Below are positions 7,604-52,878 of a stretch of DNA of 64,000 nucleotides, piece after piece. This DNA is from Patescibacteria group bacterium (GTDB lineage Bacteria > Patescibacteriota > Minisyncoccia > UBA6257 > 02-FULL-45-10c). The position numbers were made by a program, and so were the translations under genes. The stretch is from the NCBI GenBank assembly GCA_018969615.1, contig JAGWYA010000002.1:3070-67069 (forward strand), written 5' to 3'. Below the pieces are notes generated by a model. The model had not been told where the DNA came from. It was given only the letters and a program-made list of their open reading frames with translations, and did no database searches. The first letter of the stretch is position 1; each line of letters opens with the position of its first letter.

Positions 7604-7661
7604 AACAAAAGTGTATTTTTTGGAGCATAAGAACCCGAGGATCTAAAAATACACTTTTGTT
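7604..7661 (+). repeat. Conserved-loop hairpin HL1 (loop ATAAGAACCCGAG)
   Basis: aacaaaagtgtattttt / aaaaatacacttttgtt stem with the 13-nt family loop at 7627-7639. Confidence 0.8.
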
Positions 7662-7683
7662 GCAACTTTAGGCTTATTCCCGC

Positions 7684-7718
7684 CTACTGCCCACTGCCTA
7701 CGCGCTACTCCCTACTTG
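7684..7718 (+). repeat. Degenerate CTACTGC heptamer array (5 units)
   Basis: CTACTGC CCACTGC CTACGCG CTACTCC CTACTTG. Confidence 0.7.
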
Positions 7719-7730
7719 GCGAATGGATTC

Positions 7731-8001
7731 AGAACCCATTTGCGAAATAGTTTCTAGGCGCGTTGCGAGGAAAAATGGAATAGCTCAAGAAGCAACGACG
7801 AGATCGCAGCATGAGCTGCCTCGAGGAGGAGCAACGAAGGGCTATTCCATTTTAACCGCAACCCACAGGGATAGGGTCAATTTTATTTATACCTTCGTTA
7901 CTCGTCAGAAAGGTAGCTACAGCTACGATTTCTTCCTCGCGCCTTACTCTAAATAAAATTGACCACTATCGCGCCAGTAATCTATTTCGCAAATGGGTTC
8001 T
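7731..8001. mobile_element. MITE-like nested inverted-repeat element
   Basis: 20-bp perfect IR agaacccatttgcgaaatag (7731-7750) / ctatttcgcaaatgggttct (7982-8001); inner stems 7772-7784/7841-7853 and 7875-7889/7950-7964. Confidence 0.6.
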
Positions 8002-8980
8002 TGGCCCCATAAACTTCAAAATGCAAATTACATCCCGAAGGCCCGTCATTCTGGCCCGTATCTCCCGTCAGCGCGATCTCCTTTCCTTTCGCCACATAAT
8101 CACCGACCGACACTAAGTTCTTTGAGGTATGCGCATACCGGGTCTTGGTGCCGTTCGGATGGTCGATCAAAATATAATTCCCGTATCCTCCGTTCCATCC
8201 CGAACCAACCACTTCAACGACCAATCCTTCGGCGGCCGCATACACCGGCGTACCGCATGCGTTCGTGATATCAACGGCATTATAGGAATACAACCGCCCG
8301 CCGTTCCAACCCGTCGTCGGGATCGAGAAATATCCAGGCAGGCTCGGCAGGCCGGAAAGCGACGCATAGTTCGTCGATCGCACCGGCCGCCCTCCCGGGA
8401 TGATCAGCGATGACGCGGTCGCGATCTGCGAAGGCACGAAGCCGGGGTTCGCATGAAGGATGCTTTGCACGGAAACATCGTACAGAGCGGCAATGCTGTC
8501 CAGTGTTTCACCGTCCTGTATCTGATGAAGCACGCCGTTCACCGGCAAGATCGTCAACTGCTGTCCCGGACGCAGCACTGACCAGTTAACACCCGTGTTC
8601 GCCCAGATCAATGTGTTCAATGAAATACCGAAGTTCGCCGCAATGATCGATGCCGAGTCGCCGGACTGGACCGTATAAAGCAATACGCCGCCGCGCGTCG
8701 GCACGACGTTGCTCAGCGGATTATCGCTGTTCAACAGCGCCGCACCGCCGACCACGTTCATCGGCGCATCAGTATTGACCGCGATCGCCGCCTCGCTGTC
8801 GATCGGACTTCCCGAATAGAGCGCCGCAGTGTCAGCGCTCAATGCGGCATCAACGGACAGCGGCTGCCCCGAAAGATAGAGCTGCGCCTTCAACGCCTGG
8901 TACCCGCCCGGCGCCGCAAAGATATATTGAGAGACCACAAAGTTCCCGATCGCCATGACCGCAATGAACACGACCGTCAT
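7982..8980 (-). CDS. LysM-LysM-M23 peptidase family protein (catalytic His substituted; start uncertain)
   Basis: N-terminal TM, two LysM repeats (YTVQSGDS, HQIQDGETL), M23 motifs GTPVYAAAEG, GYGNYILIDH, TRYAH, LHFEV. Confidence 0.88.
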   Translation of the reverse strand: MTVVFIAVMAIGNFVVSQYIFAAPGGYQALKAQLYLSGQPLSVDAALSADTAALYSGSPIDSEAAIAVNTDAPMNVVGGAALLNSDNPLSNVVPTRGGVLLYTVQSGDSASIIAANFGISLNTLIWANTGVNWSVLRPGQQLTILPVNGVLHQIQDGETLDSIAALYDVSVQSILHANPGFVPSQIATASSLIIPGGRPVRSTNYASLSGLPSLPGYFSIPTTGWNGGRLYSYNAVDITNACGTPVYAAAEGLVVEVVGSGWNGGYGNYILIDHPNGTKTRYAHTSKNLVSVGDYVAKGKEIALTGDTGQNDGPSGCNLHFEVYGAKNPFAK

Positions 8981-9098
8981 CGCGGTCGTCCAATCTTTCA
9001 AAAAAGACGCGAGCGTCCTTGCTTTATGGAGTTGTTGACGTAAGATATCAATAATATCGATAGCGTAGCATGTGCCCCGTGCCCGCTCAATACCACCT

Positions 9099-10955
9099 AT
9101 GCCACAGCGCTCCCATCCTTCACCGCTCAATACAACCCAGGAACAAGCGGTCCGCCATTCCGGAGGACCGCTTTTGATCGCCGCCGGCGCCGGATCGGGA
9201 AAAACGAAAACGCTTACGAGCCGGCTTTTGCATCTTTTGGAGACCGGCGTCGCTCCGCAGGCGATCATTGCGATCACGTTCACCAACAAAGCCGCGAAAG
9301 AAATGAGGTCGAGAATAACGAATAATGAATTAGGAATAACGAACGGGGCGACTGATGAAAAAAAGAGCGGCGTAATTCATAATTCGAAATTCATACTTCC
9401 ATTTATAGGAACGTTCCACGCGCTCGGCGTCCGCATCCTGAAAGAAGAAGCGCACTGGGTGGGACGCACATCACACTTCACGATCTTCGACGACGAGGAT
9501 AGCGCGAGCCTGATCAAATCGATCCTGAAAGAACTGCAGCTCTCCAAGGACCGCTTCAGTCCGTACGCCGTCATCGGCCAGATCTCACGGATCAAGAATG
9601 AATTGATCAATGTCGATGAGTACGCGGACGAAGGCCGCTATGAACACACGATCGCGACCGTCTACCGGAAATATAATGAAACACTCCTGCACAGCAACGC
9701 GTTCGATTTTGACGATCTCATCGAGAAGGTCGTCCGCATCTTCCTTGAGCATCCCGAAGTGCTCGCCAAATACCGCGCCCGCTGGCAGTATGTTCTCGTC
9801 GATGAGTTCCAGGACGTGAACACGAACCAGTACCTGTTCGTAAAACTGCTCGCCCAGGAGCACAAGAACATCTTCGTGATCGGCGACGACGCGCAAAGCA
9901 TCTATGCGTTCCGCGGTTCCGATTTCCGGAACTTCCTCAATTTCGAAAAGGACTGGCCGGATGCGAAGGTGATCCTGCTGACCGAGAACTACCGTTCCAC
10001 GAAAAATATCATCAACGCCGCCTCGGCGCTCATCAAACATAATTCGTTCCAAAAGCCGAAGGATCTCTGGACCAGCAACCCGGAAGGGGAGCTGATCAAC
10101 GTTATGGCGTTCCAGAACGCCGAGGAGGAAGCGGTCTCGGTCGCCCAGCGGGTCCGCGAAGCGCTCGGCGGCGGCGAATCTCCGAAAGAGATCGCGGTCC
10201 TGTACCGTACGAACGCGCAATCCCGCGCGCTCGAGCAATCGCTCATCAGGAACAACATTCCGTACGAGATCTACGGCGGGCTGAAGTTCTATGCCCGCAA
10301 GGAGATCAAGGACATTGTCTCCGCGATCCGGTACGCGTTCAATCCGAAGGACCGCTCCGCGATCGACCGCATCACGAAAACGTTCAATAAAGGCCCGCGC
10401 ATCGCGCTTCTGGAAGCGCTTCCGCGTCTTGCCGAAGAAAGGCTGTCGCTCGTTGAACTGATCCAATATTTCCTTGAAGAGACCCGCTACACCGAATTCC
10501 TCGCCCTTCATTTCAAAAATCCCGATGAACGCCTTGAGAACATCAAAGAACTGATCCAATTTGCCGCGAGCTTCAACGATCCGCATGATTTCATCGAGCA
10601 GGTGACGCTGTTATCCTCGCTCGACGGCCGGCCGAAACTGCAGGAGAACGCGGTGAAACTGATGACGATCCATCTGTCCAAGGGCCTTGAGTTCGACCGC
10701 GTCTTCATCGTCGGCGCGAACGAAGGACTGCTTCCGCATGAACGCTCAATGATAAAGAACGATGACCTCGAAGAAGAGCGGCGCCTGATGTATGTCGCCA
10801 TAACCCGCGCCCGGAAACATCTCACGATCAGCTTTTATGATCTGCCGTCGCGGTTCCTCGGCGAACTGCCGCCGGAACTCATCGCATTCACGAAAGTCAG
10901 CAGTTACGGCGCCGAAACCCGCGACTGGGATGATGAAACGATATACTTAGAATAA
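9099..10955 (+). CDS. uvrD: UvrD/PcrA ATP-dependent DNA helicase
   Basis: AGAGSGKT, TFTNKAA, GTFH, VDEFQD, GDDAQSIY, NYRST, LYRTNAQS, MTIHLSKGLEF, EERRLMYVAITRA; ~29-codon insertion at 9313-9399. Confidence 0.95.
   Translation: MPQRSHPSPLNTTQEQAVRHSGGPLLIAAGAGSGKTKTLTSRLLHLLETGVAPQAIIAITFTNKAAKEMRSRITNNELGITNGATDEKKSGVIHNSKFILPFIGTFHALGVRILKEEAHWVGRTSHFTIFDDEDSASLIKSILKELQLSKDRFSPYAVIGQISRIKNELINVDEYADEGRYEHTIATVYRKYNETLLHSNAFDFDDLIEKVVRIFLEHPEVLAKYRARWQYVLVDEFQDVNTNQYLFVKLLAQEHKNIFVIGDDAQSIYAFRGSDFRNFLNFEKDWPDAKVILLTENYRSTKNIINAASALIKHNSFQKPKDLWTSNPEGELINVMAFQNAEEEAVSVAQRVREALGGGESPKEIAVLYRTNAQSRALEQSLIRNNIPYEIYGGLKFYARKEIKDIVSAIRYAFNPKDRSAIDRITKTFNKGPRIALLEALPRLAEERLSLVELIQYFLEETRYTEFLALHFKNPDERLENIKELIQFAASFNDPHDFIEQVTLLSSLDGRPKLQENAVKLMTIHLSKGLEFDRVFIVGANEGLLPHERSMIKNDDLEEERRLMYVAITRARKHLTISFYDLPSRFLGELPPELIAFTKVSSYGAETRDWDDETIYLE
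9313..9399. repeat. Inverted GAATNNN heptamer arrays inserted in frame in uvrD
   Basis: GAATAAC GAATAAT GAATTAG GAATAAC - 31 nt - GTAATTC ATAATTC GAAATTC ATACTTC; 87 nt total. Confidence 0.85.
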
Positions 10956-10977
10956 GGAAGTATGAATAAGGAATCAG
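10950..10977 (+). repeat. Left heptamer array of the four-helix-bundle cassette
   Basis: GAATAAG GAAGTAT GAATAAG GAATCAG; contains the uvrD stop and the next ATG. Confidence 0.85.
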
Positions 10978-11351
10978 GGAAAATAAGAAACTTTCAGGAC
11001 CTCGATGCATGGAGAGAAGGGCATCTCTTGGTTTTAGAGACCTATAAGGTCACAAAAAAATTCCCCAGGGAAGAAATTTTTGGATTGATAAGTCAGATGC
11101 GGCGGTGCGCGGTATCAATTACTTCTAATATTGCTGAAGGATTCAGTAGGCAGTCCTACAAAGAAAAGTTGCAATTTTATTCAATATCGCAAGGATCGGT
11201 CACTGAACTCCAAAATCAACTGCTTATATCAAAAGATGTGGGCTATATGGACGAAAGTGAATTTCAAAAAATTTCCGAACAGTCGATAAAAGTACATAAG
11301 ATCATAAACGGCCTGATCAGGCATTCTAAGGCCGTAATTCCTAATTCCTAA
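10962..11351 (+). CDS. Four helix bundle protein (TIGR02436 / 23S rRNA IVS-protein / bAvd-like fold)
   Basis: FQDLDAW, FPREEIFGLISQMRRCAVSITSNIAEG, SQGSVTELQNQL signature; lower GC than neighbours. Confidence 0.92.
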   Translation: MNKESGKIRNFQDLDAWREGHLLVLETYKVTKKFPREEIFGLISQMRRCAVSITSNIAEGFSRQSYKEKLQFYSISQGSVTELQNQLLISKDVGYMDESEFQKISEQSIKVHKIINGLIRHSKAVIPNS

Positions 11352-11361
11352 TTCGAAATTC
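11334..11361 (-). repeat. Right (inverted) heptamer array of the four-helix-bundle cassette
   Basis: GTAATTC CTAATTC CTAATTC GAAATTC; contains the gene's stop and abuts the ksgA ATG. Confidence 0.85.
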
Positions 11362-23065: not shown

Positions 23066-24148
23066 ATGAACTGGCTTAAACTTATAAAATATCTGGTCAT
23101 TATCCTCATCATTGTGGGGATCGTCTGGTTAGTGCGCTTCTTCTTTTTCTCAACGCCGGCAGGCCAAAATATTTTGAGCGCACTTCTCCCGCAACAGGCG
23201 GCGCAGCCGGTTGCCACTTCGACCGCGCAACAACTCAACGCACTGACCTCGGAACCGATCTTCGATTACTGGGTCAGTACGAGCACGAATGCCGTCTTTT
23301 ATGCGACCGAAACGGGGCAGATCATGAAGCTCGCCAATGCGCAAACAATGCCGGTTACATCCCAGACCATCACGCGGCTTCATTCCATTGCCGGATCATA
23401 TGATGGCGCATACGCCGTTGCCGAGTTCAATTATCCGTCCCTTCCGCTTTTCAGCGTCCTGACCACCGCGAATAAAACCTGGCAGCCACTGCCGGTCGGC
23501 ACGATCGCCGCCGCGTGGTCGCCTGACAAAGATCAGCTGGCCTACCTCAGCAGTACGGCATTGAATATCCTGGATATGGCCACGAATAAGACTACTCAGG
23601 TCATGCCGCTGACCCAGGAAGAACTGGCTATGACATGGGTGACCGATTCGAAGATCGTTTTGAGCACGCTGCCGACCGCCCAACTGAATACCGAGACCTG
23701 GACCATCGATCCGGTGAAGAAAACGATCACGTCGTCCCTGGAGGCCCCGGGGACCGTCACAAACTGGTCGCCGGACGGAACGATGGGCATCATGCTGACC
23801 AACACCAATAATGCTCCGGTTACGAGCCTCATCGATCCGAACCAAAACCAGCTCTCCCAGTTCTCCTTCGTCACGATGCCGGAGAAGTGCGCGTTCGACG
23901 GAACTAAGATCTACTGCGCGATCCCCAAAAACATTCCAACCCAGGCAACGCTTCCGGATGACTTCTACAAAAAATCGGTTTACTTCGATGATGCGATCTA
24001 TCTGATCGATCTTTCCTCGGGCGGATTCACGCAGGCGCAGACCGGCTCGGCAAACCCGATCGATGCGACCCATTTGGAAGTCCAGGGCTCGGCGCTGCTC
24101 TTCATCAACCGCCTCGACAACAAGCTGTACTCGCTGACACTGCAGTAG
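23066..24148 (+). CDS. Membrane-anchored beta-propeller (TolB/WD40-like) protein
   Basis: N-terminal TM; WSPD repeats; EKC...YCAIP...LPDDFY C-terminal motif. Confidence 0.75.
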   Translation: MNWLKLIKYLVIILIIVGIVWLVRFFFFSTPAGQNILSALLPQQAAQPVATSTAQQLNALTSEPIFDYWVSTSTNAVFYATETGQIMKLANAQTMPVTSQTITRLHSIAGSYDGAYAVAEFNYPSLPLFSVLTTANKTWQPLPVGTIAAAWSPDKDQLAYLSSTALNILDMATNKTTQVMPLTQEELAMTWVTDSKIVLSTLPTAQLNTETWTIDPVKKTITSSLEAPGTVTNWSPDGTMGIMLTNTNNAPVTSLIDPNQNQLSQFSFVTMPEKCAFDGTKIYCAIPKNIPTQATLPDDFYKKSVYFDDAIYLIDLSSGGFTQAQTGSANPIDATHLEVQGSALLFINRLDNKLYSLTLQ

Positions 24149-24165
24149 AATTTTTCCGCTCGTGA

Positions 24166-24229
24166 GGGCAGAGGAACTTATTTTGGGAACGTAAGAATTT
24201 CAATGTTCTCAAAAGAAGTTCCTCTGCCT
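24166..24229 (+). repeat. Conserved-loop hairpin HL2 (loop GTAAGAATTTCAAT)
   Basis: gggcagaggaacttattttgggaac / gttctcaaaagaagttcctctgcct 25-nt arms. Confidence 0.8.
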
Positions 24230-24243
24230 TATAGCCTTTCACA

Positions 24244-24314
24244 TATAAAAGTACCGCATCATTTTCTAAGTATTGAAATACTTACACTTAGAAAGTGATA
24301 CGGTGCTTTTTATA
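24244..24314 (-). repeat. Conserved-loop hairpin HL3 (loop GTAAGTATTTCAAT on minus strand)
   Basis: tataaaagtaccgcatcattttctaagt / acttagaaagtgatacggtgctttttata arms; loop 24272-24285. Confidence 0.8.
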
Positions 24315-24321
24315 ACTACTT

Positions 24322-24365
24322 AAGAAAATACTCTCCGACTTCTATTGGAGAGTATTTTCTTTTTT
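24322..24365. terminator. Probable bidirectional terminator
   Basis: aagaaaatactctcc-10 nt-ggagagtattttctt between convergent genes. Confidence 0.65.
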
Positions 24366-24795
24366 ACAGGTCCAGCGGTTTGACCACCACCTGCCGCGCT
24401 TCGCCTTCGCCGATGCTTTCCGTTTTGATGTCAGGCCGCGTCGCAAGCTCCACATGCACCAACCGGCGTTCATAGGCGTTCATCGCCGGGAGAGAAACCT
24501 CTTTCTTCTCCAGAAGCGCTTTGCGCGCGGCCGCTTTCGCGAGCTCGCCGATCAGACGCTCCCGTTCACGCTTGTAGTTGTTCACGTCAACGATCACGCG
24601 TTCCAGTTGCATCTTCTTCGCCATCAAACGCACGACATGGTCGAGGTCCTGCATCAAACGCGGAAGGAATCGGGCAACCACATCCTCGTCATGGATAAAA
24701 ATGCTCACGCGGCGCCCTTCAGCGTCCACGTCAACCGAGAAGTCCAGCCCGGACGGCCGTAACATCTGTTCGATCGTTTGTTTAAGCGAGTCCAT
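24364..24795 (-). CDS. Jag/KhpB-like KH-R3H RNA-binding protein (short form)
   Basis: VDVNNYK, LPAMNAYERRLVH, TESIGEGEARQVVV; downstream of yidC. Confidence 0.88.
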   Translation of the reverse strand: MDSLKQTIEQMLRPSGLDFSVDVDAEGRRVSIFIHDEDVVARFLPRLMQDLDHVVRLMAKKMQLERVIVDVNNYKRERERLIGELAKAAARKALLEKKEVSLPAMNAYERRLVHVELATRPDIKTESIGEGEARQVVVKPLDL

Positions 24796-25501
24796 GTACT
24801 TTTTCTTCTTCTTTAATATTGATGGTCTTATTGATATAGATCTGCTGACCGGCGGTAAAGACCGAGGTCACCACCCAGTACAAACCGATCGCCGAAGGAA
24901 GAGTTCCCAGGATCACCACCGTGATCACCGGACCGATGAAGATCATCTGCCGCGTCATTTGATCCGCAGTCGAGAGCTCCTGCCCCTTTTCGAGCTTCGG
25001 TAGTGCCAGGCGCCCTTGCACGTATTGTGCCGCTGCCGCCAGGATAACCATAAGAATACTCGGATTTTGGAGATTGAGCAAGTGCAGGAACGTAGCGTTT
25101 ATCTGCTGCGGGACGGCAACAAAGCTATACAGCAGCGTCAGAGACTCCGGAGTGATCTTCTGTAAAAAGACGCGATAAAGTCCGATCAACACCGGAAGCT
25201 GGACCAGCAGCATCAAAAATCCCGAAAAAGGGTTCACATTATGCTGCCGATAGAGCTCCATCATAGCCTGTGCCTGTTTTTCTTTATCATCCTTATGCTG
25301 ATGCTGGATCTTTTTAATATCCGGCTGAAGCTTTTGAATAAGGGTCTGGTTCCGGGCGCCTTTATAGAAAAGCGGCATGAATGCGATACGGATCGCGAGC
25401 GTCAAAAGAATGATCGCAACGCCAAGATCATGAAACGCGATCGTGTTATAGAACACGATGAGCGCATTGAGGAACGGGGTGTAGAAAATGGCTTGGAGCA
25501 T
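24782..25501 (-). CDS. yidC: YidC/Oxa1 membrane protein insertase
   Basis: GVAIILLTLAIR, LQPDIKKIQ, MMELYRQHNVNP, QLPVLIGLY, LYW; canonical synteny. Confidence 0.95.
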   Translation of the reverse strand: MLQAIFYTPFLNALIVFYNTIAFHDLGVAIILLTLAIRIAFMPLFYKGARNQTLIQKLQPDIKKIQHQHKDDKEKQAQAMMELYRQHNVNPFSGFLMLLVQLPVLIGLYRVFLQKITPESLTLLYSFVAVPQQINATFLHLLNLQNPSILMVILAAAAQYVQGRLALPKLEKGQELSTADQMTRQMIFIGPVITVVILGTLPSAIGLYWVVTSVFTAGQQIYINKTINIKEEEKVHGLA

Positions 25502-25516
25502 AGAAAGATAAATGGC

Positions 25517-25846
25517 TTACCGGGCGATGCCGCGGACCGCTGCTGCGACCGATCGGGTAAGATCGTGCGCATCGGTGCGGGATGCTGCGGCGTTCACAAT
25601 GAAAAGAAGATCGGAACGGGAGAGAAGCTTCGGGGCGTGCATCTCCCGCAAGGCATTAAAGAAGATACGGCGGAGGCGCGTGCGGTCGGATGCTTTTTTC
25701 ACGGTCCCTTTTTTAAGAACAACGCCAAAACGGGCATAGGGGAACGGGCTCGGGAACACTTTAACTGAAAATTCGGGGAAGGGGATCGTGCGGCCTCGCA
25801 TGTCCCGGGTTGACTGGATCGGAAGACGGTATTTCTTTGCCAGCAT
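25517..25846 (-). CDS. rnpA: Ribonuclease P protein component
   Basis: MLAKKYRL, RFGVVL.K, KKASDRTRLRR (RNR-like motif); between rpmH and yidC. Confidence 0.88.
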   Translation of the reverse strand: MLAKKYRLPIQSTRDMRGRTIPFPEFSVKVFPSPFPYARFGVVLKKGTVKKASDRTRLRRIFFNALREMHAPKLLSRSDLLFIVNAAASRTDAHDLTRSVAAAVRGIAR

Positions 25847-25886
25847 AGATACGCGAATCGCGGGACATGCCCGCGAATTGCTTTAC

Positions 25887-26021
25887 TTAGACCGTCAACC
25901 GATGACGCCCCTTATGACGGCGCGCCGTCAGTACTCGGCGCCCTCCCTTCGTCCTGTTCCGGCGAAGGAAACCATGCGTCCGGGCCCGTTTTCGCTTTTT
26001 AGGTTGATATGTTTGCGACAT
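25887..26021 (-). CDS. rpmH: 50S ribosomal protein L34
   Basis: [21 protein letters not shown]...GRRVL..RR.KGRHRL, 44 aa. Confidence 0.97.
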
Positions 26022-26217
26022 GAAACCAGTATATACTATCGTTTCAGGCGAGGCAAGCAAGGAATTCGCTCCGCTGCACGGCCATTTTTTGCGATCCGAC
26101 AGGCATTGCATGGCATACCAGCGCACGTTTGATACAAAATGGCAAATTACTATGGACAAACGATCTGCGTCTCGGTCATACTGATAAAAAATACACCCGT
26201 TGCTGATGCAAAAACAG

Positions 26218-26226
26218 TTATCCACA
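26218..26226 (+). promoter_or_regulatory. DnaA box upstream of dnaA
   Basis: Perfect TTATCCACA in the rpmH-dnaA intergenic region. Confidence 0.8.
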
Positions 26227-26392
26227 AGGCATCAACAGATTATTATCTTTTCACTGTTTCCTTCTGCGGCGCATCCGTTTAAAATGAATATATATTTTCG
26301 GTGTGTTTCTCCGGTACTTCTTAAAAATCATTTTTCAGTCCGTTGAAGTAAGGCAACGGGCGGTGGGAGAGTAATCATTTTATTTTTTTATC

Positions 26393-27760
26393 ATGGAGTT
26401 CGAACAATTGTGGCAAACTGCGCTCGGTGAAATAGAAACTCAGGTTTCTAAGCCGAACTTTGCGACCTGGCTGAAGAACAGTAAGCTCTTGGACAAGCAA
26501 GAAGGCGTGGTCTTGGTCGGACTTCCGAACACTTTTGCAAAAGAATGGGTGGAGAACAAGTATCAGAAGATCATTTTGAACGCGCTGCGCAATCAGGACC
26601 AGGCGACAAAGAAGGTTCAGTTCACGGTGCATAACACGAACATCGCTCCGACGCCGCTCCCGCAGCGAAAACCGAAGCAGGTCAGCGAAGAAGAGTTCAA
26701 GAAACAGCTTGCGTTCGAAGAACTGAAGATCGATCCGGAAACGAACCTCAATCCGCGCTATCGCCTGAGTTCGTTTGTCGTCGGCAAAACGAACGAACTC
26801 GCGTACGCCGCCGCAAGCGCGGTTATTGATGAGATCGGCCGGAAATATAATCCGTTGTTCTTCTACGGCGGCACCGGACTGGGAAAGACCCATCTCATCC
26901 AGGCGATCGGGAACGAGATCAAAGTGCGCTACAAGGATAAAGTACGCGTGAAATATGTGTCGTCCGAAAAATTCACGAACGATGTGATCTACGGGATCCG
27001 GAACAAGCGCATGGAGGACATGAAGGACAAGTACCGGAACGTCGACGTTCTGATCATCGATGATATTCAGTTCATCGGCGGCAAGACCACGACGGAAGAG
27101 GAGTTCTTCCATACCTTCAACGCGCTCTACGAGAACAATAAACAGATCATCATCTCGTCCGACCGCCCGCCGAAGTTCATCCCGACCCTGGAAGACCGCC
27201 TGCGGTCCCGGTTCGAAGGCGGCATGATCGCGGATATCTCCTATCCTGACTACGAACTGCGCCTTGCTATCTTAAAGACTAAGCTCCAGGAGCGCGGAGC
27301 GGCCTTGCCGGAGAACATCGTTGAGTTCATCGCCAATAAGATCCAGAAGAACCTTCGCGAACTGGAGGGGGTGCTGAACCGGATCCTGTTCTACCAGTAC
27401 GCAAAGAAGGAAGTGACCCTGAAGATGGTGGAAGAGATCGTCAGCGGCGTCCTTCAGCAGCCGACCAAGAACATCAATCCGAACCAGGTCATTAAAGCGG
27501 TCGCTGATTACTATGAGATCTCCCAGAACGATCTGACCGGCCGCTGCCGCCAGAAAAGCATCGTAGAACCGCGCCAGATCACCATGTACCTCCTCCGGGA
27601 CATTCTCGGCCTTTCCTACCCGGATATCGGCCAAAAACTGGGCAAGCGCGACCATACCACGGCGATCTATGCGACGAATAAGATCTCCGAAGAGATCAAT
27701 AAAGATCAGGACCTCAATCAGAAGATCCTGGCGATCAAAGATCTGGTTTATAAAGAATAA
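26393..27760 (+). CDS. dnaA: Chromosomal replication initiator DnaA
   Basis: YNPLFFYGGTGLGKTHL, DVLIIDDIQF, EEFFHTFN, RLRSRF, RELEG, RDHTT. Confidence 0.98.
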   Translation: MEFEQLWQTALGEIETQVSKPNFATWLKNSKLLDKQEGVVLVGLPNTFAKEWVENKYQKIILNALRNQDQATKKVQFTVHNTNIAPTPLPQRKPKQVSEEEFKKQLAFEELKIDPETNLNPRYRLSSFVVGKTNELAYAAASAVIDEIGRKYNPLFFYGGTGLGKTHLIQAIGNEIKVRYKDKVRVKYVSSEKFTNDVIYGIRNKRMEDMKDKYRNVDVLIIDDIQFIGGKTTTEEEFFHTFNALYENNKQIIISSDRPPKFIPTLEDRLRSRFEGGMIADISYPDYELRLAILKTKLQERGAALPENIVEFIANKIQKNLRELEGVLNRILFYQYAKKEVTLKMVEEIVSGVLQQPTKNINPNQVIKAVADYYEISQNDLTGRCRQKSIVEPRQITMYLLRDILGLSYPDIGQKLGKRDHTTAIYATNKISEEINKDQDLNQKILAIKDLVYKE

Positions 27761-27959
27761 GGTGGGGATAAGGGATAGGATAGTCTCTGTATAAATATGA
27801 ACGTTCACACTGCATATAAAAATTATCCGAAGATCTTCAGAGGGTTATCCACAAGAAATCAGCGGAAAGAAAAACTCTTTTTTCGTTATTCCGTCTGGCT
27901 TCTCCGGTTTTCTCCCCTGTATTAACATCCCCTATTACCTCTTCTAATTCTTTATCTAT
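27761..27959. other. Probable oriC (dnaA-dnaN intergenic part)
   Basis: TTATCCACA 27845-27853, near-box TGGGGATAA 27763-27771, AT-rich segments, trio-like tract before dnaN. Confidence 0.75.
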
Positions 27960-29069
27960 ATGAAATTAGTAATACTCAAAAATAATCTCCGCGAAGGATT
28001 AACGGCGATTGACCGGGCTGCGGGAGAACATGCGAACCTTCCGATCCTGAAAAATGTCCTGGTAAAGACCGCTGATAATAAGATCCGCCTTTCGGCGACG
28101 AACCTTGAGATCGCCGCATCGCGGTCCGTATCGGGAAAGATCGTTGAGGAAGGGAGTATTACGGTTCCGCTTGCGACCTTGCTGACGATCGTGAACAATA
28201 CGGCAAGCGAACGGATCACGCTCGAGACCGACCAGAACACGCTGTTTTTCAAGACGGATAACTATGAAGCGACCATTCAGGGTCTTCCTGAAGAGGAATT
28301 TCCGATCATTCCGAAGATCGAGAATAAGAAGGAATATCTCTCGTTCAGCGCGGATGTTCTGCGCGATGCGGTCCTGAAGATCCTTTCAACGATCCAAGTT
28401 TCAGAGATCCGTCCCGAGATCGGCGGGATGCTTTTTGATTTTGAGATCACGTACCTGAAATTTGCGGGAACGGACAGTTTCCGGCTTGCGGAAAAAACGA
28501 TCACGGAAACGAATTTTACCAGCACGTTTACCCGCGGGTTTAAAGTGATCGTTCCGCTGAAAACGATGCAGGAAGTGCTCAGGATCATGGTTAAAGGCGA
28601 GGTGACGATCTTCATTGATCCGAACCAGATCCTCTTTCAAGGCGAGGATACCGAGATCATTTCCCGGCTTATCGAGGGGACCTATCCCGAGTATGACGCG
28701 ATCACGCCGAAATCATTTGAAACGGAAATGACGATCGAACGCGAGCATCTGATGAATGCGGTCAAATTGGTCAGTACGTTCAGCGGAAAAGTGAACGAGA
28801 TCAAAATGAAACTTCACGACGGAAAGAAGGTGTTGGAGGTCTATTCGATGAATCAGGCGCTGGGTGAAAATAAATATCTGGTGCCGGTCAAAGCGAAAGG
28901 GGAATCGTTCGAGACCGCGTTCAATTGGCGGTATGTCATGGAAGGATTGAAGAACTTTGAAAGCGCCGAAGTGTTCTTCGGTGTGAATGGCAGCCATCGT
29001 GCGGCGCTGCTGAAGAATCCGAGCGACGCATCATATTTTTATATTGTGATGCCGATCAATATGAACTAA
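27960..29069 (+). CDS. dnaN: DNA polymerase III beta clamp
   Basis: LPILKNV, ATNLEI, EFP, GTDSFRLA, SRLIEGTYP, IVMP; follows dnaA. Confidence 0.97.
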   Translation: MKLVILKNNLREGLTAIDRAAGEHANLPILKNVLVKTADNKIRLSATNLEIAASRSVSGKIVEEGSITVPLATLLTIVNNTASERITLETDQNTLFFKTDNYEATIQGLPEEEFPIIPKIENKKEYLSFSADVLRDAVLKILSTIQVSEIRPEIGGMLFDFEITYLKFAGTDSFRLAEKTITETNFTSTFTRGFKVIVPLKTMQEVLRIMVKGEVTIFIDPNQILFQGEDTEIISRLIEGTYPEYDAITPKSFETEMTIEREHLMNAVKLVSTFSGKVNEIKMKLHDGKKVLEVYSMNQALGENKYLVPVKAKGESFETAFNWRYVMEGLKNFESAEVFFGVNGSHRAALLKNPSDASYFYIVMPINMN

Positions 29070-41885: not shown

Positions 41886-41970
41886 TTTTGGAATCGCCTA
41901 TAAAATAGGCGATTTTTTTTGCACACGTTATTCATTTTCATTGGCGAGGTGTCAGTGTACAGTAAAGGTA

Positions 41971-42777
41971 ATGATCATTTCGCTGTACGGGCCGGACAGT
42001 TATCGCCGGCAGAAAAAACAGGATGATATCCTTGCGGGATACCGCGCCAAGCATTCGGGGTTGTCGGTGGAATATTTCGACTTGGAGGACGATAATGCTT
42101 TTGATGCGCTTCGGGAGTTCGTCCGGGCGACATCGCTGTTCGATGCGATGAAATGCGCGGTCGTGCGGCATGCGGACGCGCTGGGAAAGGCGGAGGGAAA
42201 AGAGTTCCGTGCTTTTTTAAAGGACCAGCTGGCGCGCAAGGAGTCGACCCTCGTACTACTCTGGGATAAAAAGCCGACCAAGGAATATGCATTCTTACTG
42301 AAGGCGCCGGCGCTGGCGCAGGAATTCGCCGAGCTGAGCGGATCGGCGCAGCTGGCATTCATCGCGAATGAAGCGAAGGCGCGCGGGATCACGATCGACC
42401 GTGCGGGGATCGACCTGCTGAGCCGTGCGTTCCAGGGGAATACCTGGGGCCTTGTAACCGAGCTTGAGAAGCTGGCGCTACTGGATGAAAAAACTGTAAC
42501 CCTGAAGACGATCAGCGGGCATCTTGAGTTGTTCAATGAACTGAATCTTTTTACCGCGCTCGGAACGATCCGAACCTCTCCCGATCGTGCGGAGCGTCTG
42601 CGGCTTCTCGAGGAGCTATTGAGCCGCCATAATGATCCGGCGATGCTCTTTAATATGATCGCGGTCGCGCCGTACGAAGGAAGGGAATGGAAGACCGCGG
42701 TCGCCGACTATGATGTCGCGGTCAAATCGGGGAAGCTTGAATACGAAGAGGCGCTGCTTGCCTTGGCGCTGCGATAA
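41971..42777 (+). CDS. holA: DNA polymerase III delta subunit (HolA-like)
   Basis: LYGPDSYR, SLF, GNTWGLVTELEKL, D.AVKSG C-terminus. Confidence 0.8.
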   Translation: MIISLYGPDSYRRQKKQDDILAGYRAKHSGLSVEYFDLEDDNAFDALREFVRATSLFDAMKCAVVRHADALGKAEGKEFRAFLKDQLARKESTLVLLWDKKPTKEYAFLLKAPALAQEFAELSGSAQLAFIANEAKARGITIDRAGIDLLSRAFQGNTWGLVTELEKLALLDEKTVTLKTISGHLELFNELNLFTALGTIRTSPDRAERLRLLEELLSRHNDPAMLFNMIAVAPYEGREWKTAVADYDVAVKSGKLEYEEALLALALR

Positions 42778-42801
42778 ACATCGTTTGAATTATTTTGCGC
42801 G

Positions 42802-42864
42802 AGAAAGCGCCAGTCCCTTTTTCAGTAACGGGTTCTTACACTGAAAAAGGGACTGGCGCTTTCT
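42802..42864 (-). repeat. Conserved-loop hairpin HL4 (loop GTAAGAACCCGTT on minus strand)
   Basis: 25-bp perfect stem agaaagcgccagtccctttttcagt / actgaaaaagggactggcgctttct. Confidence 0.85.
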
Positions 42865-42891
42865 TCGTATTGCGTATTTTATATAAAAATA

Positions 42892-42950
42892 AGGCAGGAT
42901 ATCTTTGGGGCAGCATAAGACCCCGGCGCTGTTCCAAAGATATCCTGCCT
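42892..42950 (+). repeat. Conserved-loop hairpin HL5 (loop ATAAGACCCCGGC)
   Basis: 23-bp stem aggcaggatatctttggggcagc / gctgttccaaagatatcctgcct with two G-T pairs. Confidence 0.85.
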
Positions 42951-43022
42951 GTTCTTGTATGGCTGTGTTTTTTAAAAACAGTGCGGCAAAGACGGACAAA
43001 AAAATTCCCCGGAGGGAAATTT

Positions 43023-48137: not shown

Positions 48138-49484
48138 ATGAAGATCACGTTTTTCGGCGGGACCGGCGAAGTGACCGGTTCGAACTATTTGGTGGAAAGC
48201 GGCGAGACGAAAGTGCTCGTCGATTGCGGTCTGCATCAGGGGGAACATTTTTCCGCTCGGCATAACTGGGAGGCCTTTCCGTACGATCCGAAAGGGATCG
48301 ATGCGGTTTTTGTTACTCATGCGCATCTGGACCATACCGGACGGTTGCCGAAGCTGGTGAAGGAGGGTTTGCGCGGCCGCGTTCATTCAACGCCGCCGAC
48401 CCGCGATTTTGCGAATCTGCTGCTTTTAGATTCAGAACATGTCCTGTTGGATGAAGCGCAGCGGACGGGGAATCCGCCGCTCTACGGCGTCCGGGAGGTG
48501 GAGGATCTGATGGGACAGTGGGATGTGCTGCCGTACCATCAGCCGCTGAAAGTGGGGCCGATGACTGTGACGCTCTATAACGCCGGGCATATTTTGGGAT
48601 CGAGTATCGTGGTCATTGAAGCCGAAGGGAAACGCATCGCATTTTCCGGCGACCTCGGGAACAGCCCGGCGCCGATCATCGGGCCGTACGAGCTCTTGGG
48701 GGACCTCAATATTGATTGCTGCGTGATCGAATCGGCGTACGGCGACCGCATCCATGATCCGGTCGACGAAAAAGTCCTTGAGGACCTGATCGAAGAAACG
48801 GTAAAGAACGGCGGCGTGCTGATGATCCCGGCGTTCGCGATGGAACGCACGCAAAAATTATTATTTACGATCAATGAATTAGTGAATAAGGGAAAGATCC
48901 CGCGCGTTCCGGTCTATCTGGACAGCCCGCTCGCGATCAAAGTGACTGAGGTCTACAAAAAATATACGAAGTATTTCGATGCGTCGACCAAGGCCCTTAT
49001 GCGCGACGATAGCGCCCTCTTTGAGTTTCCGGGATTACATAAGGCGCTGACCACGGAACAATCGAAGGAGATCAATGATGTTCCTCCGCCGAAGATCGTG
49101 ATCGCCGGATCGGGCATGTCGCACGGCGGCAGGATCCTGCATCATGAGAAGCGTTATTTGCCGGACCCGAAGAGCGCGATCCTGTTCGTCGGGTACCAGG
49201 CCGACAAATCGCTGGGGCGGAAGATCCGCGACGGTGTGTCGCCGGTCCGGATCCTCGGAGACGACATTCCGGTCCGCTGCAAGAAAGTTTCCATTGAGGG
49301 CTATTCCGCGCATGCTGATCAGCGCCAGTTGCTTGCCTGGCTTTCGCCGATGCGGAAAACGCTCATGCGGGTGTTCGTGGTCCAGGGCGAGGAGGAGGGA
49401 AGCGATGTACTTGCGCACAAGATCACTGAGGACCTCGGAGTTGCGGCGGAAGCTCCTCAATTCGGCAGAGTCTTTGAGTGCTAA
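48138..49484 (+). CDS. MBL-fold beta-CASP ribonuclease (paralog 2)
   Basis: GEVTGS, VDCG, THAHLDHTG, AGHILG, FSGDLG, ESAYG, GSGMSHGGRILHH, YSAHAD. Confidence 0.93.
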   Translation: MKITFFGGTGEVTGSNYLVESGETKVLVDCGLHQGEHFSARHNWEAFPYDPKGIDAVFVTHAHLDHTGRLPKLVKEGLRGRVHSTPPTRDFANLLLLDSEHVLLDEAQRTGNPPLYGVREVEDLMGQWDVLPYHQPLKVGPMTVTLYNAGHILGSSIVVIEAEGKRIAFSGDLGNSPAPIIGPYELLGDLNIDCCVIESAYGDRIHDPVDEKVLEDLIEETVKNGGVLMIPAFAMERTQKLLFTINELVNKGKIPRVPVYLDSPLAIKVTEVYKKYTKYFDASTKALMRDDSALFEFPGLHKALTTEQSKEINDVPPPKIVIAGSGMSHGGRILHHEKRYLPDPKSAILFVGYQADKSLGRKIRDGVSPVRILGDDIPVRCKKVSIEGYSAHADQRQLLAWLSPMRKTLMRVFVVQGEEEGSDVLAHKITEDLGVAAEAPQFGRVFEC

Positions 49485-49505
49485 GGGGTGTGGTATACTG
49501 ACACT

Positions 49506-50108
49506 ATGGCAGCGAAACTAAGCACCCGAGACCATCTGAAATATAAGATCTGCATTTCCGGCGCGGCTGATACCGGCCATTGCGCTGCGGATGCTCCGCA
49601 GAAGGCTGAACAGCTGGGCCGCGAGATCGCTAAACGCGGTATGGTGTTGGTGACCGGCGCGACCGTCGGCATTCCGTATTGGGCGGCGAAGGGCGCGAAA
49701 GAAATGGGCGGCATGGTCATCGGATTGTCGCCGGCGGCGTCCGAAGCGGCGCATGTGAAAACGTATCAGCTTCCGACGGACTACCACGATGTGATCGTCT
49801 ATACCGGTTTTGAATATTCGGGGCGCAATCTGTTGCTGACCCGTTCCGCGGATGCGATCATTCACATCTGCGGCCGTATGGGAACCTTGAATGAGTTTAC
49901 GATCGCGTTTGAAGACGAGAAGCCGATCGGCGTGCTGGAGGGGACCGGCGGAACTGCGGATGAGCTGCATGATATCGTGAAGAAAATGCATCGCGGACCG
50001 GGGCGGGTGATCTACGGAAAGAATATTTCCGATCTGCTGGACAAGGTGGTCGCCGAGATCGACAAGGACCGGAAGAACAAGGATCACGACCGGTACGTCC
50101 GCGGATAA
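49506..50108 (+). CDS. LOG / Rossmann-fold nucleotide-binding protein
   Basis: LVTGATVG, AKGA, IGLSPA, GRNLLL, GRMGTLNE, GTGGTAD. Confidence 0.85.
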   Translation: MAAKLSTRDHLKYKICISGAADTGHCAADAPQKAEQLGREIAKRGMVLVTGATVGIPYWAAKGAKEMGGMVIGLSPAASEAAHVKTYQLPTDYHDVIVYTGFEYSGRNLLLTRSADAIIHICGRMGTLNEFTIAFEDEKPIGVLEGTGGTADELHDIVKKMHRGPGRVIYGKNISDLLDKVVAEIDKDRKNKDHDRYVRG

Positions 50109-50123
50109 CGATCTTTATTTTTT

Positions 50124-50429
50124 ATGCTGAAGAACATTCTTCGATCACTGGGGAAAAAGAAGCCGAAGGTGCGGACCGATAAACCGGTCGGCACGGTGAC
50201 GCATTATTACGGAGGCTTGGGCGTGGCGATCGTAAAATTCAAAAAGATCATGCCGGCGGGAGCTGATGTGCAGTTCTGCGGCGCAACAACCGATTTTTCT
50301 CAGACGCTCGATTCGATGGAACTGAACCGGAAACCGATCGCGAAGGCGCCGAAGGGGAAGGAAGTGGGCATCAAAGTGAAGAAAAAAGTGCGGGAAGGCG
50401 ACAACGTGTACGAAAATAAGGAAGAGTAA
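50124..50429 (+). CDS. Translation-factor-like beta-barrel protein
   Basis: VGTVTHYY..LGVAIV, G.TTDF.Q..SM, A.KG.EVGIKV...VREGD.VY. Confidence 0.75.
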   Translation: MLKNILRSLGKKKPKVRTDKPVGTVTHYYGGLGVAIVKFKKIMPAGADVQFCGATTDFSQTLDSMELNRKPIAKAPKGKEVGIKVKKKVREGDNVYENKEE

Positions 50430-50441
50430 CCGATCGGACGG

Positions 50442-51578
50442 ATGGACTCCTTTTTGAAAACCGTTCTGCAGCCGGCAAGCATCCTTTCAGGAACGATCAT
50501 CGGCGCCGGCGTGTTCGCGCTTCCGTATATTTTCGCGCAGGTTGGCGTGCGCGCGGGTTTGATCGGCCTGGTCCTGTGCGGAGTGCTCTTCGGCTTCCTT
50601 TATTATGTGTATGGCGATGTGATCGCGCGGACGGCGGGCGAGCACCGTTTTGTCGGATATGCGCGGACCTATCTGGGGAAGCCGGGATTCCTCCTTGCGC
50701 TGTTCGTCGGGTTCTTTGAGCTCATCGTGATCCTGGCGATCTACCTGATCCTGGCGCCGAGCTTTTCTCAATTGATCGTCGGCGGCGCGGCGGGATGGCA
50801 TTTGTTGGCTTTCTGGATCATCGCTTCCGCGGTTGCGCTCAGCAGCAATCGGAAAATGGCGTTTCTGGAGTTCCTGATCGTGGCCGGGATCGTCATGATC
50901 ATGGCGCTGCTGTTCATCCTGGGTATTCCGAAGTTTTCGCCGGCGCTGATCTCGGGCGTTGATTGGAAACACTTGTGGAACTTCGCGATCGTCGGTCCGA
51001 TCCTGTTCTCGCTTTCCGGGAGCCTCGCGGTTCCGGAGATCATCCGTTATTTTCATGATGAAAAAATTCCCGTCGCGTTCTTCCGCCGTACGGTTTGGCT
51101 CGGTATGAGCATCGCGATCGTCGCCTATGCGGCATTTGTGCTCGGCGTGCTCAGCCTCTCTCCGGCGGTCTCGTCTGATGCGGTGAGCGGTTTGCGCGGT
51201 GCGGTGGCGCCTGGAGTCCTTGCGGTGATCGGAGTGCTCGGGATCCTTTCATTGTTAAGTTCGTATATCGTTGCCGGGCTCAATGTGCGCCATATCGTCG
51301 AATACGATCTCGGCCTTCCGCGTCTTGCAGGCGCGGGAACGCTCGTTGCGGCGCCGCTGCTGCTTTATATGGCCGGTCTGCAGAATTTCATGGGCGCGGT
51401 GTCGTTCGCCGGGTCCATTTTTCTTCCGTTGGAGAGCATTCTGATCATCTTTATGTGGATGAAGATGCGGCGCCAAACGACCGCGGAACCGGTATTCTCA
51501 GGGGTATGGACCCTAGTTCCGGCAATCGGAGCGTTGGTTATTTTTGTGACTATCCTGTTTTATGCGATACTAAAGTAG
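50442..51578 (+). CDS. Aromatic amino acid / HAAAP family permease
   Basis: GTIIGAGVFALP in TM1, about 11 TM helices. Confidence 0.85.
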   Translation: MDSFLKTVLQPASILSGTIIGAGVFALPYIFAQVGVRAGLIGLVLCGVLFGFLYYVYGDVIARTAGEHRFVGYARTYLGKPGFLLALFVGFFELIVILAIYLILAPSFSQLIVGGAAGWHLLAFWIIASAVALSSNRKMAFLEFLIVAGIVMIMALLFILGIPKFSPALISGVDWKHLWNFAIVGPILFSLSGSLAVPEIIRYFHDEKIPVAFFRRTVWLGMSIAIVAYAAFVLGVLSLSPAVSSDAVSGLRGAVAPGVLAVIGVLGILSLLSSYIVAGLNVRHIVEYDLGLPRLAGAGTLVAAPLLLYMAGLQNFMGAVSFAGSIFLPLESILIIFMWMKMRRQTTAEPVFSGVWTLVPAIGALVIFVTILFYAILK

Positions 51579-51611
51579 ATAAGGCTCTCGAGTAAAATTA
51601 ATATCTTTTTT

Positions 51612-52133
51612 ATGGCGCAAGCGGAAAAACGAGGGACGGGGAATAGTAAGCTTCCGTCTCCACATCGTCGCATCGAGATGTTCGGCGGAGCGCAGAAGGG
51701 AGTCGTCGTATGCGTAAAGTGCGGCAGTTATTTTTATAAGAAGGCCTGGCATCATGACGCTAAGGCGTTCTTGGCAAAGCGCGAAAATAAAGGTATGCCG
51801 GTTACGCAACGTTTGTGCCCGGTGGATGAACGGCTTGCGCAGGGGAAATACGGCGGGAAATTGGTGATAACCCGGGTTCCGGCGGCAGAACAAAAGGACC
51901 TGCTGAATTTGGTTCGCGGATTTTGTGAACGCGCCGAAGATCGCGATCCGCTTGCTCGCCTTATCGCGCTTACGGTAAAAAGCGGCACGGTCACGGTGAC
52001 CGTGAGCGAAAATAGACTTGCGCAGCATCTCGCAAAAAAGATCTCCGATGCGTTCAAAAAGAAAGCGGTGATCGCATACCTTCGTGAGCCGGATGATATC
52101 GCGCAGATCGCCATTGAGTTTTCCGGAAAATGA
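51612..52133 (+). CDS. BCAM0308-like (NMD3-related) protein
   Basis: CVKCG.YFYKKAW, LCP, LLNLVR, DPLARL, ENRLAQHLA. Confidence 0.65.
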   Translation: MAQAEKRGTGNSKLPSPHRRIEMFGGAQKGVVVCVKCGSYFYKKAWHHDAKAFLAKRENKGMPVTQRLCPVDERLAQGKYGGKLVITRVPAAEQKDLLNLVRGFCERAEDRDPLARLIALTVKSGTVTVTVSENRLAQHLAKKISDAFKKKAVIAYLREPDDIAQIAIEFSGK

Positions 52134-52155
52134 GCCTATCCTGGGGAAGTAGTTC

Positions 52156-52227
52156 GTCCCCGTGGTTCAATGGATAGAACGTAGCCCTCCGAAGGCTGAG
52201 ATCGAGGTTCGATTCCTCGCGGGGACA
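52156..52227 (+). tRNA. tRNA-Arg(CCG)
   Basis: GTCCCCG acceptor stem pairs with CGGGGAC; D arm GTTC/GAAC; anticodon arm TAGCC-CTCCGAA-GGCTG; T loop GGTTCGATTCC; CCA not encoded. Confidence 0.96.
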
Positions 52228-52233
52228 CAAAGG

Positions 52234-52294
52234 AAAACAAAGCCTCTTTCGCGCAGTACTGGGTTCTTATACTGCTTCAAAGAGGTTTTGTTTT
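52234..52294 (-). repeat. Conserved-loop hairpin HL6 (loop ATAAGAACCCAGT on minus strand)
   Basis: aaaacaaagcctctttcgcgcagt / actgcttcaaagaggttttgtttt arms immediately after the tRNA. Confidence 0.8.
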
Positions 52295-52363
52295 TAGGAT
52301 AGTAAAAAGAAAAACCTGCTATGACACGTCATAGCAGGTGTATTTATTTTGGAGATGCGCAGG

Positions 52364-52672
52364 CTATTTTTTCTTGAAGATGAAATCCTTTCGGCGAAAG
52401 CCGCGGCTTATAAAATAAGCAAGATGTTCTTCAAGTTCTGAGGCGATTGAGGGATAGAGTAGCTCGAGTTGATCGATGTCGCATCGTTTTGCCCAGGCGG
52501 CGACCGCATTTTTAAGGAGGTCTTCGCTGTAAGCGCAAATGCCGCATGCTCCGCATACGAAATAAGGAGCATGAAACGCGACAAAGGAATACCCTCTTAA
52601 AAGAAGCTCGTTTTTTTCGGGAACTTTTCCGCAAGAAGGGCAGTAAAAATCATCAGACGACAACTCGCTCAT
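52364..52672 (-). CDS. Small zinc-ribbon hypothetical protein
   Basis: CPSCG and CGACGIC motifs; GGAG RBS; AT-richer than core genes. Confidence 0.7.
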   Translation of the reverse strand: MSELSSDDFYCPSCGKVPEKNELLLRGYSFVAFHAPYFVCGACGICAYSEDLLKNAVAAWAKRCDIDQLELLYPSIASELEEHLAYFISRGFRRKDFIFKKK

Positions 52673-52820
52673 GAGATCTCCATTTTAAAAAAACTACCAA
52701 CAGGATAGCTTAATTAGAGATCCTCTTGCAATGAGAATACTTAATTTTGCGGCGATCACCGATAATTAGCCCCACTATAATGTGTCATAGCAGGGTATTC
52801 TTTTTCCTCAAGCGAGGAAG

Positions 52821-52878
52821 TATTTCTGGTTGTTTTTTCATCGTAAGACCCCGGTGATGAAAAAAATAACCCGAAATG
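52821..52878 (+). repeat. Conserved-loop hairpin HL7 (loop GTAAGACCCCGGT)
   Basis: tatttctggttgttttttcatc / gatgaaaaaaataacccgaaatg arms; loop 52843-52855. Confidence 0.8.

Follow-up and report, generated by a model that had tools for sequence, protein, structure and literature searches.

A 64,000-nt stretch of DNA from the genome of a Patescibacteria group bacterium (the window, G000:C2:3070-67069) contains hairpins of a family in which the tip is conserved and the stem is required merely to pair. The family is real and non-random, with 30 loci found by covariance-model search on 11 of the 14 contigs of the genome. We give a probability of about 0.5 to the reading that these copies, about 30 in number, form a palindromic DNA repeat family that is young and lineage-specific, of the same kind as repetitive extragenic palindromes (REPs), Rickettsia palindromic elements (RPEs) and miniature inverted-repeat transposable elements (MITEs), with a tip that is read by a putative factor. 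What leads us to a DNA repeat is the restriction to one lineage, the copy number, the clustering, the truncated copies, the copying of whole hairpins, the orthologous sites free of hairpins, and the indifference to orientation.

The genome assembly (G000, the window's own genome) has 807 kb in 14 contigs at 53% GC and is scored 96.6% complete. Hairpins were catalogued from two independent whole-genome hairpin scans and one motif-anchored scan, and a covariance model built on 28 copies was run over the entire genome. Open reading frames (ORFs) were taken from a greedy map that is 90% coding. Four same-genus genomes (G001-G004) were compared. Hairpins in the window are named by their first position; those elsewhere are given by contig and position.

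Size and anatomy of the family

Loop motif. The initial annotation of the window had described five hairpins with a common loop and two more, near 24.2 kb, with a variant loop. All five sites are where they were claimed, each at a hairpin tip, and both variant hairpins are present (Table 1). The loop motif RTAAGAMCCCR occurs in the window at 7627(+), 42829(-), 42915(+), 52260(-) and 52843(+), five matches where 0.14 are expected; five or more were reached in 0 of 100 shuffles of the window, and every one of the real matches falls in the middle of an inverted repeat and forms the tip of a long hairpin. A count over the whole genome, which the annotation had proposed as a check, bears it out: the genome has 25 copies, 19 of them inside catalogued hairpins, and in 20 genomes simulated with a first-order Markov model the motif averages 2.05 copies and never exceeds 4. 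For a shifted 11-mer, TAAGAMCCCRG, 17 of 18 genomic copies fall inside catalogued hairpins.

Loop classes. The covariance search added no locus to the catalogue; one of its 30 loci is truncated (E 0.34). Class A accounts for 20 loci, with the loop R-TAAGAMCCCRG-Y, and class B for ten, with the loop GTAAGAATTTCAAT or GTGGAATTTCAAT or a near variant. Two extra short or truncated class B copies were recognised by eye, one at C10:14511-14539 and one at C11:1154, the latter a short copy with 9 pairs. Loops of the family are 11-14 nt long, whereas canonical terminators of this genome have stems of 12-18 pairs, loops of 3-7 nt, and A- and T-runs at the base. Among the 43 strongest hairpins of the genome, 20 have a loop of at least 9 nt, and 17 of these 20 bear a class A or class B loop. 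When aligned on their loops the two classes are homologous, sharing G-T-R-R-G-A-A, a pyrimidine run, an invariant C and two purines; class B differs from class A mostly by transitions, with CC(C)..GG becoming TT(T)..AA.

Stems. Information per column is 0.5-2 bits in the loop and 0.05-0.5 bits in mid-stem. The five pairs next to the loop (GCAGY/RCTGC) hold about 1 bit and the next four pairs little, a T/A tract at pairs 9-10 holds about 1 bit, and the A-rich stem base 0.6-0.9 bits. The stems had been called unrelated; that is so for the mid-stem, which is free, but not for the five loop-adjacent pairs, the T/A tract and the base, which are semi-conserved. Nor are whole arms independent, as in 378 arm-to-arm comparisons the mean score is 3.28 (2.25 with shuffled arms) and 8.7% of the pairs exceed the 99th percentile of shuffled arms. 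Subfamilies of stems can be recognised, for instance 42802 with C4:170777, and the likeness crosses loop classes: the stem of the class A hairpins linked to tRNA genes resembles those of the class B hairpins C5:14337 and C10:2758, with scores of 11 and 9, where the 99.9th percentile of the null is 8.

Covariation. Pairing is observed in 85.2% of stem cells, compared with 56.1% in 500 shuffles and 43-48% when the partner column is slid, and 237 stem cells are changed on both sides, compared with 75 and 61-73, respectively. None of the 500 shuffles reaches the observed paired share or the observed number of two-sided changes, a count that should not be taken as a probability because the hairpin copies are related. 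Among non-canonical stem cells on the loop-sense strand, G.T outnumbers A.C by 21 to 11 (about 15 to 6 without the tRNA subfamily and two badly registered hairpins, dropped by hand), and in 21 of 29 copies the RNA fold of the loop-sense strand is the more stable one, to which a shared closing G.U pair contributes. The G.T lean and the stability of the sense strand are a weak and non-decisive hint of an RNA made in loop sense.

Change over time. Copies taken as young, namely the C5/C10 duplicates and members of the tRNA subfamily, have 15 one-sided and 4 two-sided stem changes; in three older related pairs 25 are two-sided and 5 one-sided, which suggests that pairing is restored over time. The same three older pairs have changed at 30 of 81 stem positions and at 2 of 33 loop positions; one of these comparisons is inflated by an indel, and without that pair the figures are 15 of 54 and 2 of 22. 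The few loop changes indicate that the tip evolves more slowly than the stem. Six double changes, matched across the arms, separate the neighbours C10:14441 and C10:14639; mid-stem has all of them, and the loop, inner stem and base have none. A tip that is conserved on a stem that is not calls for selection on the tip at each locus or for homogenisation of the tip between copies.

Placement, copying and lineage

Intergenic position. We judge all 30 loci to be intergenic. Twenty-four are clear of every called ORF, and the other six are crossed by five greedy ORFs that we regard as spurious or as started too early: one overlaps the S20 gene on the opposite strand, one is a CCA-adding enzyme with a Pfam match that starts at residue 103, and the remaining ones have no Pfam match or lie outside the scanned set. 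Across the scanned neighbour ORFs, the genes that flank hairpins show no functional theme.

Orientation. No rule was found for the direction of the loop. Loop sense is on the G-rich strand (by GC skew) in 11 cases and on the opposite one in 16, on which numbers a replication-strand bias was rejected, and it runs either with or against the flanking genes. Each hairpin of the 42802/42892 pair is antisense to the nearest converging gene, while each of the 24165/24247 pair is sense, and at least two copies (52820 and C7:26851) lie between divergent genes, which for 52820 is a non-terminator position. The absence of an orientation rule fits an element that is read on DNA.

Clustering. Eighteen of the 30 loci are less than 600 nt from another copy, and the nine close neighbour pairs comprise six inverted and three direct ones. 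The two pairs in the window, 24165/24247 (class B) and 42802/42892 (class A), are both inverted. Four class A inverted pairs have their members 74-85 nt apart: 42802/42892, C5:15850/15922, C10:4197/4285 and C10:19778/19864. Each combines one TAAGAACCC loop (TAAGAAC) with one TAAGACCCC loop (TAAGACC), and as two of the four duplicate one module there are three independent cases of this combination. The C5 and C10 contigs have a two-hairpin module in common. Kissing loops within inverted pairs were discounted, since inversion trivially yields complementary loops and their complementarity is no evidence. Divergent promoters in the spacers were likewise rejected; the 27-nt spacer at 42865-42891 is AT-rich and the other pair spacers are not.

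Copies behind tRNA genes. Seven class A loci follow tRNA genes or tRNA-like 3' ends and have stem, loop and 3' trailer in common; the one in the window begins 5 nt past the annotated end of tRNA-Arg(CCG), behind the trailer conserved in the subfamily. The nearly identical stem at these seven loci, together with related stems elsewhere, implies that whole hairpins are copied, stem included. It also tells against the earlier suggestion that each stem is built by inverted copying of flanking DNA. Arms have no significant match elsewhere in the genome. Near tRNA-linked hairpins there are partial or interrupted copies of tRNA 3' ends (C1:33500-33620, C10:4050-4125 and C14:29740-29790), among them T-arm halves split by an insert of about 40 nt, and G001 (L058) has two partial tRNA 3' ends after its tRNA-Arg.

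Three identities were tried on these parts and rejected. An Rfam search excluded any catalogued ribozyme from the CTGACGAG...GAAA spacer that the tRNA modules contain. A mimic of the tRNA T loop was dropped because the antisense loop, GGGTTCTTA, does not fit the T-loop pattern. Stems acting as guides were set aside, the arms having no significant match elsewhere in the genome and a search of it having found no Piwi gene.

Truncated members. Two members, C10:14511-14539 and C14:29791-29876, have lost most of one arm: the first arm is complete, the loop is present, and the second arm stops after 8-9 nt. Taken in loop sense, the missing part is on the same side in both.

Distribution. The family seems to be lineage-specific, having arisen within one species-level lineage. 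In 40 relatives the exact motif has six matches, in five genomes, and 0 of 6 are in an inverted repeat. The covariance model gave no convincing match in the 22 other genomes of the same taxonomic family (four of them of the same genus), the one weak match having an E of 0.008, and in a sample of G003, the closest same-genus genome (199,666 of about 900,000 bases) none of seven strong hairpins has an A or B loop. A 21-letter pattern of stem top plus loop was matched 12 times among GTDB species representatives, where about 17 matches are expected under equal base frequencies, and 12 times in JGI metagenomes, in each case without a long hairpin by inspection. Viral contigs had 0 matches to the loop pattern, the only part of the hairpins that was searched there. 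The GTDB, JGI and viral collections may omit the window's own records.

Orthologous sites. For four of the places occupied in G000, the corresponding DNA of same-genus genomes is free of family hairpins. At the place of the 42802/42892 pair, G001, G002 and G003 have 31-60 nt that hold a canonical bidirectional terminator alone, and G000 retains this terminator beside the pair. The intergenic regions of G001 and G002 that correspond to the 24165/24247 pair hold a terminator of canonical type alone, G001 has no hairpin at the site of 7604, and none stands behind the orthologous tRNA-Arg of G001, G003 and G004. As genes of these genomes are 64-80% identical to those of G000, their intergenic DNA cannot reveal whether one arm pre-existed. 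In a closer strain (runs X9-X11; 86-96% identical), contigs span the 52233 and 52820 hairpins without a large gap.

Possible identities of the hairpins

Repeat-family reading. Elements of such a family would spread to intergenic sites at the DNA level, each moving or being duplicated as an entire hairpin. The loop and the inner 5-9 pairs would be kept since spread or maintenance depends on them, and the conserved tip is predicted to be the part read by the putative factor. Pairing between the arms would be restored over time, either through selection on the folded single strand or by copying of one arm from the other. Landings after genes and tRNAs would be tolerated, and such copies may double as transcript-end hairpins.

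Known systems offer partial parallels. RPEs are likewise small palindromes that lack a gene of their own; they too occupy a reduced genome, and no transposase is known for them. RPEs also occur in frame inside genes; unlike them, no long-stem copy of the family described here is inside a supported ORF. REPs have a conserved stem sequence and a free loop, so that the conserved part is reversed in our family, where it is the loop that carries 0.5-2 bits and the mid-stem 0.05-0.5 bits. REP/REPIN systems also have the RAYT transposase (Y1 HUH), its gene usually flanked by REPs, whereas G000 has no Y1_Tnp match. REPs and their composite forms (BIMEs, bacterial interspersed mosaic elements, and REPINs, REP doublets forming hairpins; PMC2817692) are, like our family, short intergenic palindromes, species-specific, present in tens of copies and often right after genes; they cluster with neighbours facing opposite ways, an arrangement that six of our nine close pairs show. 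Hairpin repeats of organelles, e.g. those of sponge mitochondria, also invade the intergenic DNA of a small genome with no known enzyme (PMC2800124); the hosts are different. As to MITEs, no transposase was found among the families searched (Y1, TnpB and reverse transcriptase), and target-site duplications are unscorable at empty sites as diverged as these. The literature that our search returned, some of it in extract, does not describe such elements in Patescibacteria.

Several results weigh against the repeat-family reading. A selfish repeat alone does not explain why old copies retain the loop as the stem drifts, a pattern that looks like per-locus selection or homogenisation of the tip. 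No enzyme that could mobilise the hairpins was found. A six-frame search of G000 gave no match to Y1_Tnp (PF01797), while the same search matched 6 of 14 control genomes; the best match of TnpB type has 16.7 bits, under the 26.3-bit cut-off, and contains an internal stop codon; and no reverse transcriptase was found in G000. The 59 ORFs beside hairpins or in three hairpin-rich regions belong to housekeeping families or are unmatched, with no mobile-element family among them. No target-site duplication or exact insertion boundary can be defined, the empty sites being too diverged. The closer strain gives neither an empty nor a conserved site at the 42802/42892 pair: one contig joins 42695 to 42983 through 278 letters that replace 42696-42982 (287 nt, with the hairpin pair) and do not align to it at 82% identity. 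The flanking genes there are 86-92% identical, and 30 letters by the right-hand junction are about 75% like G000 by an eye count. Finally, many hairpins stand directly past stop codons, and a T-rich tail (at least 6 T in 8) runs in one or both directions from 17 of 29 hairpins, 12 being without one, so the hairpins may have a host role at transcript ends.

RNA element. The transcript-end features are also the case for the strongest alternative, which we nonetheless hold to be unlikely: that the hairpins are cis elements at the RNA level (terminators, 3'-end protection or RNase III sites), with a loop that is read by a lineage-specific RNA-binding protein. A covarying stem under a conserved loop is what structured RNAs classically show. 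The same alternative would account for the seven copies behind tRNA genes or tRNA-like 3' ends, the A- and T-tracts at the stem base, the T-rich tails, the G.T excess in loop sense and the more stable sense strand, the last in part a matter of the closing G.U pair; an RNase III gene is present in G000. It fits poorly with a loop sense that has no fixed relation to the direction of neighbouring genes and with the copies between divergent genes. The same gene ends in same-genus genomes are served by a canonical terminator alone, and the 22 other genomes of the taxonomic family gave no convincing member. No Rfam family matches the hairpins: in searches at gathering thresholds and at E up to 1, tRNAs alone pass, and the hairpins have sub-threshold matches resembling microRNA precursors.

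Apical module. It is rather doubtful that the unit is not the hairpin but its apical part, loop plus about 9 pairs, passed between loci through short-patch gene conversion or placed into palindromes already there. Stem similarity across loop classes (the tRNA-linked class A stem with C5:14337 and C10:2758), the short 9-pair copy at C11:1154 and the sharp fall of information past the fifth pair from the loop all suit such a module, as do the truncated copies, in which 8-9 nt of the second arm are left, though these number just two. The outer stems of related copies are homologous over their full length, which tells against such a module. Canonical terminators are intact beside both of the hairpin pairs tested, so terminators were not the targets of insertion.

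Self-templating hairpin. Equally doubtful, in our estimate, is a replicator without transposase in which the core would be one arm plus the tip, the second arm would be made by snap-back copying, and a lineage-specific factor that evolves fast would act as reader of the tip. Snap-back copying would explain perfect stems that differ between loci, the restored pairing, and truncation 8-9 nt past the loop.

Nick sites. The initial annotation had taken the hairpins as sites for a trans-acting protein, or as scars of an insertion process, with HUH enzymes as an analogy. The general part of this stands, as a protein that acts in trans and reads the tip is in keeping with the loop being under tighter constraint than the stem. 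The specific form, in which a Rep or RAYT-like HUH enzyme nicks hairpins once they are extruded and the stems arise through inverted copying of local flank, is improbable. It would suit the conserved loop, the variable stems, the placement independent of orientation, and the end of both truncated copies at the same point relative to the loop, a possible cut or priming point. But the 96.6%-complete genome has no Y1_Tnp match (Rep and relaxase families were outside the search), the loop pattern has no match in viral contigs, and identical stems occur at different loci. The RAYT/IS200-type gene that the annotation had proposed to look for thus did not appear, nor did a TnpB over the cut-off or a reverse transcriptase; the annotation's statement that the window has no candidate enzyme holds for the annotated genes beside the hairpins.

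Ordinary terminators. It is very improbable that these are ordinary intrinsic terminators with loops alike by chance or composition, as their intergenic position and the A/T tracts at many stem bases might suggest, given 25 copies of the motif where about 2 are expected, the shorter stems and loops of the canonical terminators here, and same-genus genomes without the hairpins.

Other systems were rejected by name. Ends of IS200/IS605 elements would go with a Y1 match or a TnpB over the cut-off, and there is neither. Integron attC sites are not a match for dispersed copies, and the sole tyrosine recombinase (C2:27-503) is at the far end of its contig, distant from any hairpin. TIGR-Tas systems are described (PMC12045711) as tandem units next to a Tas gene, having loops with two 8-12 nt spacers and box C/D flanks. 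They too have variable palindromic stems and loops of conserved pattern, and come partly from Patescibacteria; we reject the identity because the loops here are 11-14 nt long and conserved and the copies dispersed, a comparison made without a search for a Tas gene.

Features of the window and wider meaning

The window's hairpins and the features next to them are listed in Table 1.

Table 1. Hairpins of the family and adjoining features, in window coordinates
Feature	Position	Strand	Remarks
Class A hairpin	7604..7661	+	Loop ATAAGAACCCGAG; covariance match C2:10669-10734, E 1.4e-8; 17 perfect outer pairs, inner part degenerate and poorly paired; lies 32 nt past a canonical terminator
Class B hairpin	24165..24230	+	Loop GTAAGAATTTCAAT; stem of 26 pairs; begins 17 nt past the stop of ORF 23066-24148
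Class B hairpin	24247..24310	-	Loop GTAAGTATTTCAAT on the - strand; stem of 25 pairs
Canonical terminator hairpin	24322..24361		Adjoins the class B pair; same kind stands alone in G001 and G002
Class A hairpin	42802..42864	-	Loop GTAAGAACCCGTT on the - strand; 25 perfect pairs; begins 25 nt past the stop of ORF 41941-42777
Class A hairpin	42892..42950	+	Loop ATAAGACCCCGGC; stem of 23 pairs
Canonical bidirectional terminator core	43005..43018		Sole hairpin there common to same-genus genomes
tRNA-Arg, anticodon CCG	52156..52228	+	tRNA-linked hairpin on its 3' side
Class A hairpin, tRNA-linked (7-locus subfamily)	52233..52290	-	Loop ATAAGAACCCAGT on the - strand
Orphan 102-aa zinc-ribbon ORF	52364..52672	-	Between hairpins 52233(-) and 52820(+)
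Class A hairpin	52820..52878	+	Loop GTAAGACCCCGGT; 10 perfect inner pairs, outer stem decayed

Zinc-ribbon ORF. The 102-aa ORF has a terminator of its own and is flanked, next to tRNA-Arg, by class A hairpins in inverted orientation. It was not found in the 40 relatives, and in a collection of 5.8 billion proteins its own cluster is the only match. Its top Pfam match is Lar (restriction alleviation), sub-threshold at E 0.025.

Other palindromes. A palindromic element of about 270 nt at 7732-8001 has 19-bp inverted termini, GAACCCATTTGCGAAATAG, and internal inverted repeats. Its part at 7746-7986 matches several sites in G002, G003 and G004 at 67-79% identity, and partial copies are found in G000 on C3, C9 and C11. 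The termini include AGAACCC, similar to the class A loop core, perhaps by coincidence. Elsewhere in the genome, a perfect 38-bp palindrome with an ATAT centre occurs at C8:28738-28775, C10:65196-65233, C10:66052-66089 and C11:16507-16544, that is, at three contig ends (C8, C10 and C11) and once inside C10; it is also present in G003 (L084). Each of its arms contains TTATCCAC or a one-letter variant, which resembles a DnaA box.

Probable replication origin. Near 26-27 kb of the window, about 2 kb from the class B pair and adjoining the gene for an R3H-domain protein, cumulative GC skew reaches its lowest value, so a replication origin is probably within the window, at about 24000-28000. GC content is lower (0.48-0.51) between 10 and 30 kb.

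Known small palindromic repeats conserve their stem; here it is the tip that is kept, in a 0.8-Mb genome without a recognisable transposase. If a protein reads the tip, the family would be a compact and tractable case of fast-evolving nucleic-acid recognition; should each arm be copied anew from its partner, it would be a natural example of palindromes maintained through template switching, and if the self-templating proposal were true, a novel class of mobile DNA, typical of genomes this small. There is a practical side as well: in Patescibacteria genomes, such hairpins interrupt assemblies and can pass for small-RNA genes or terminators.

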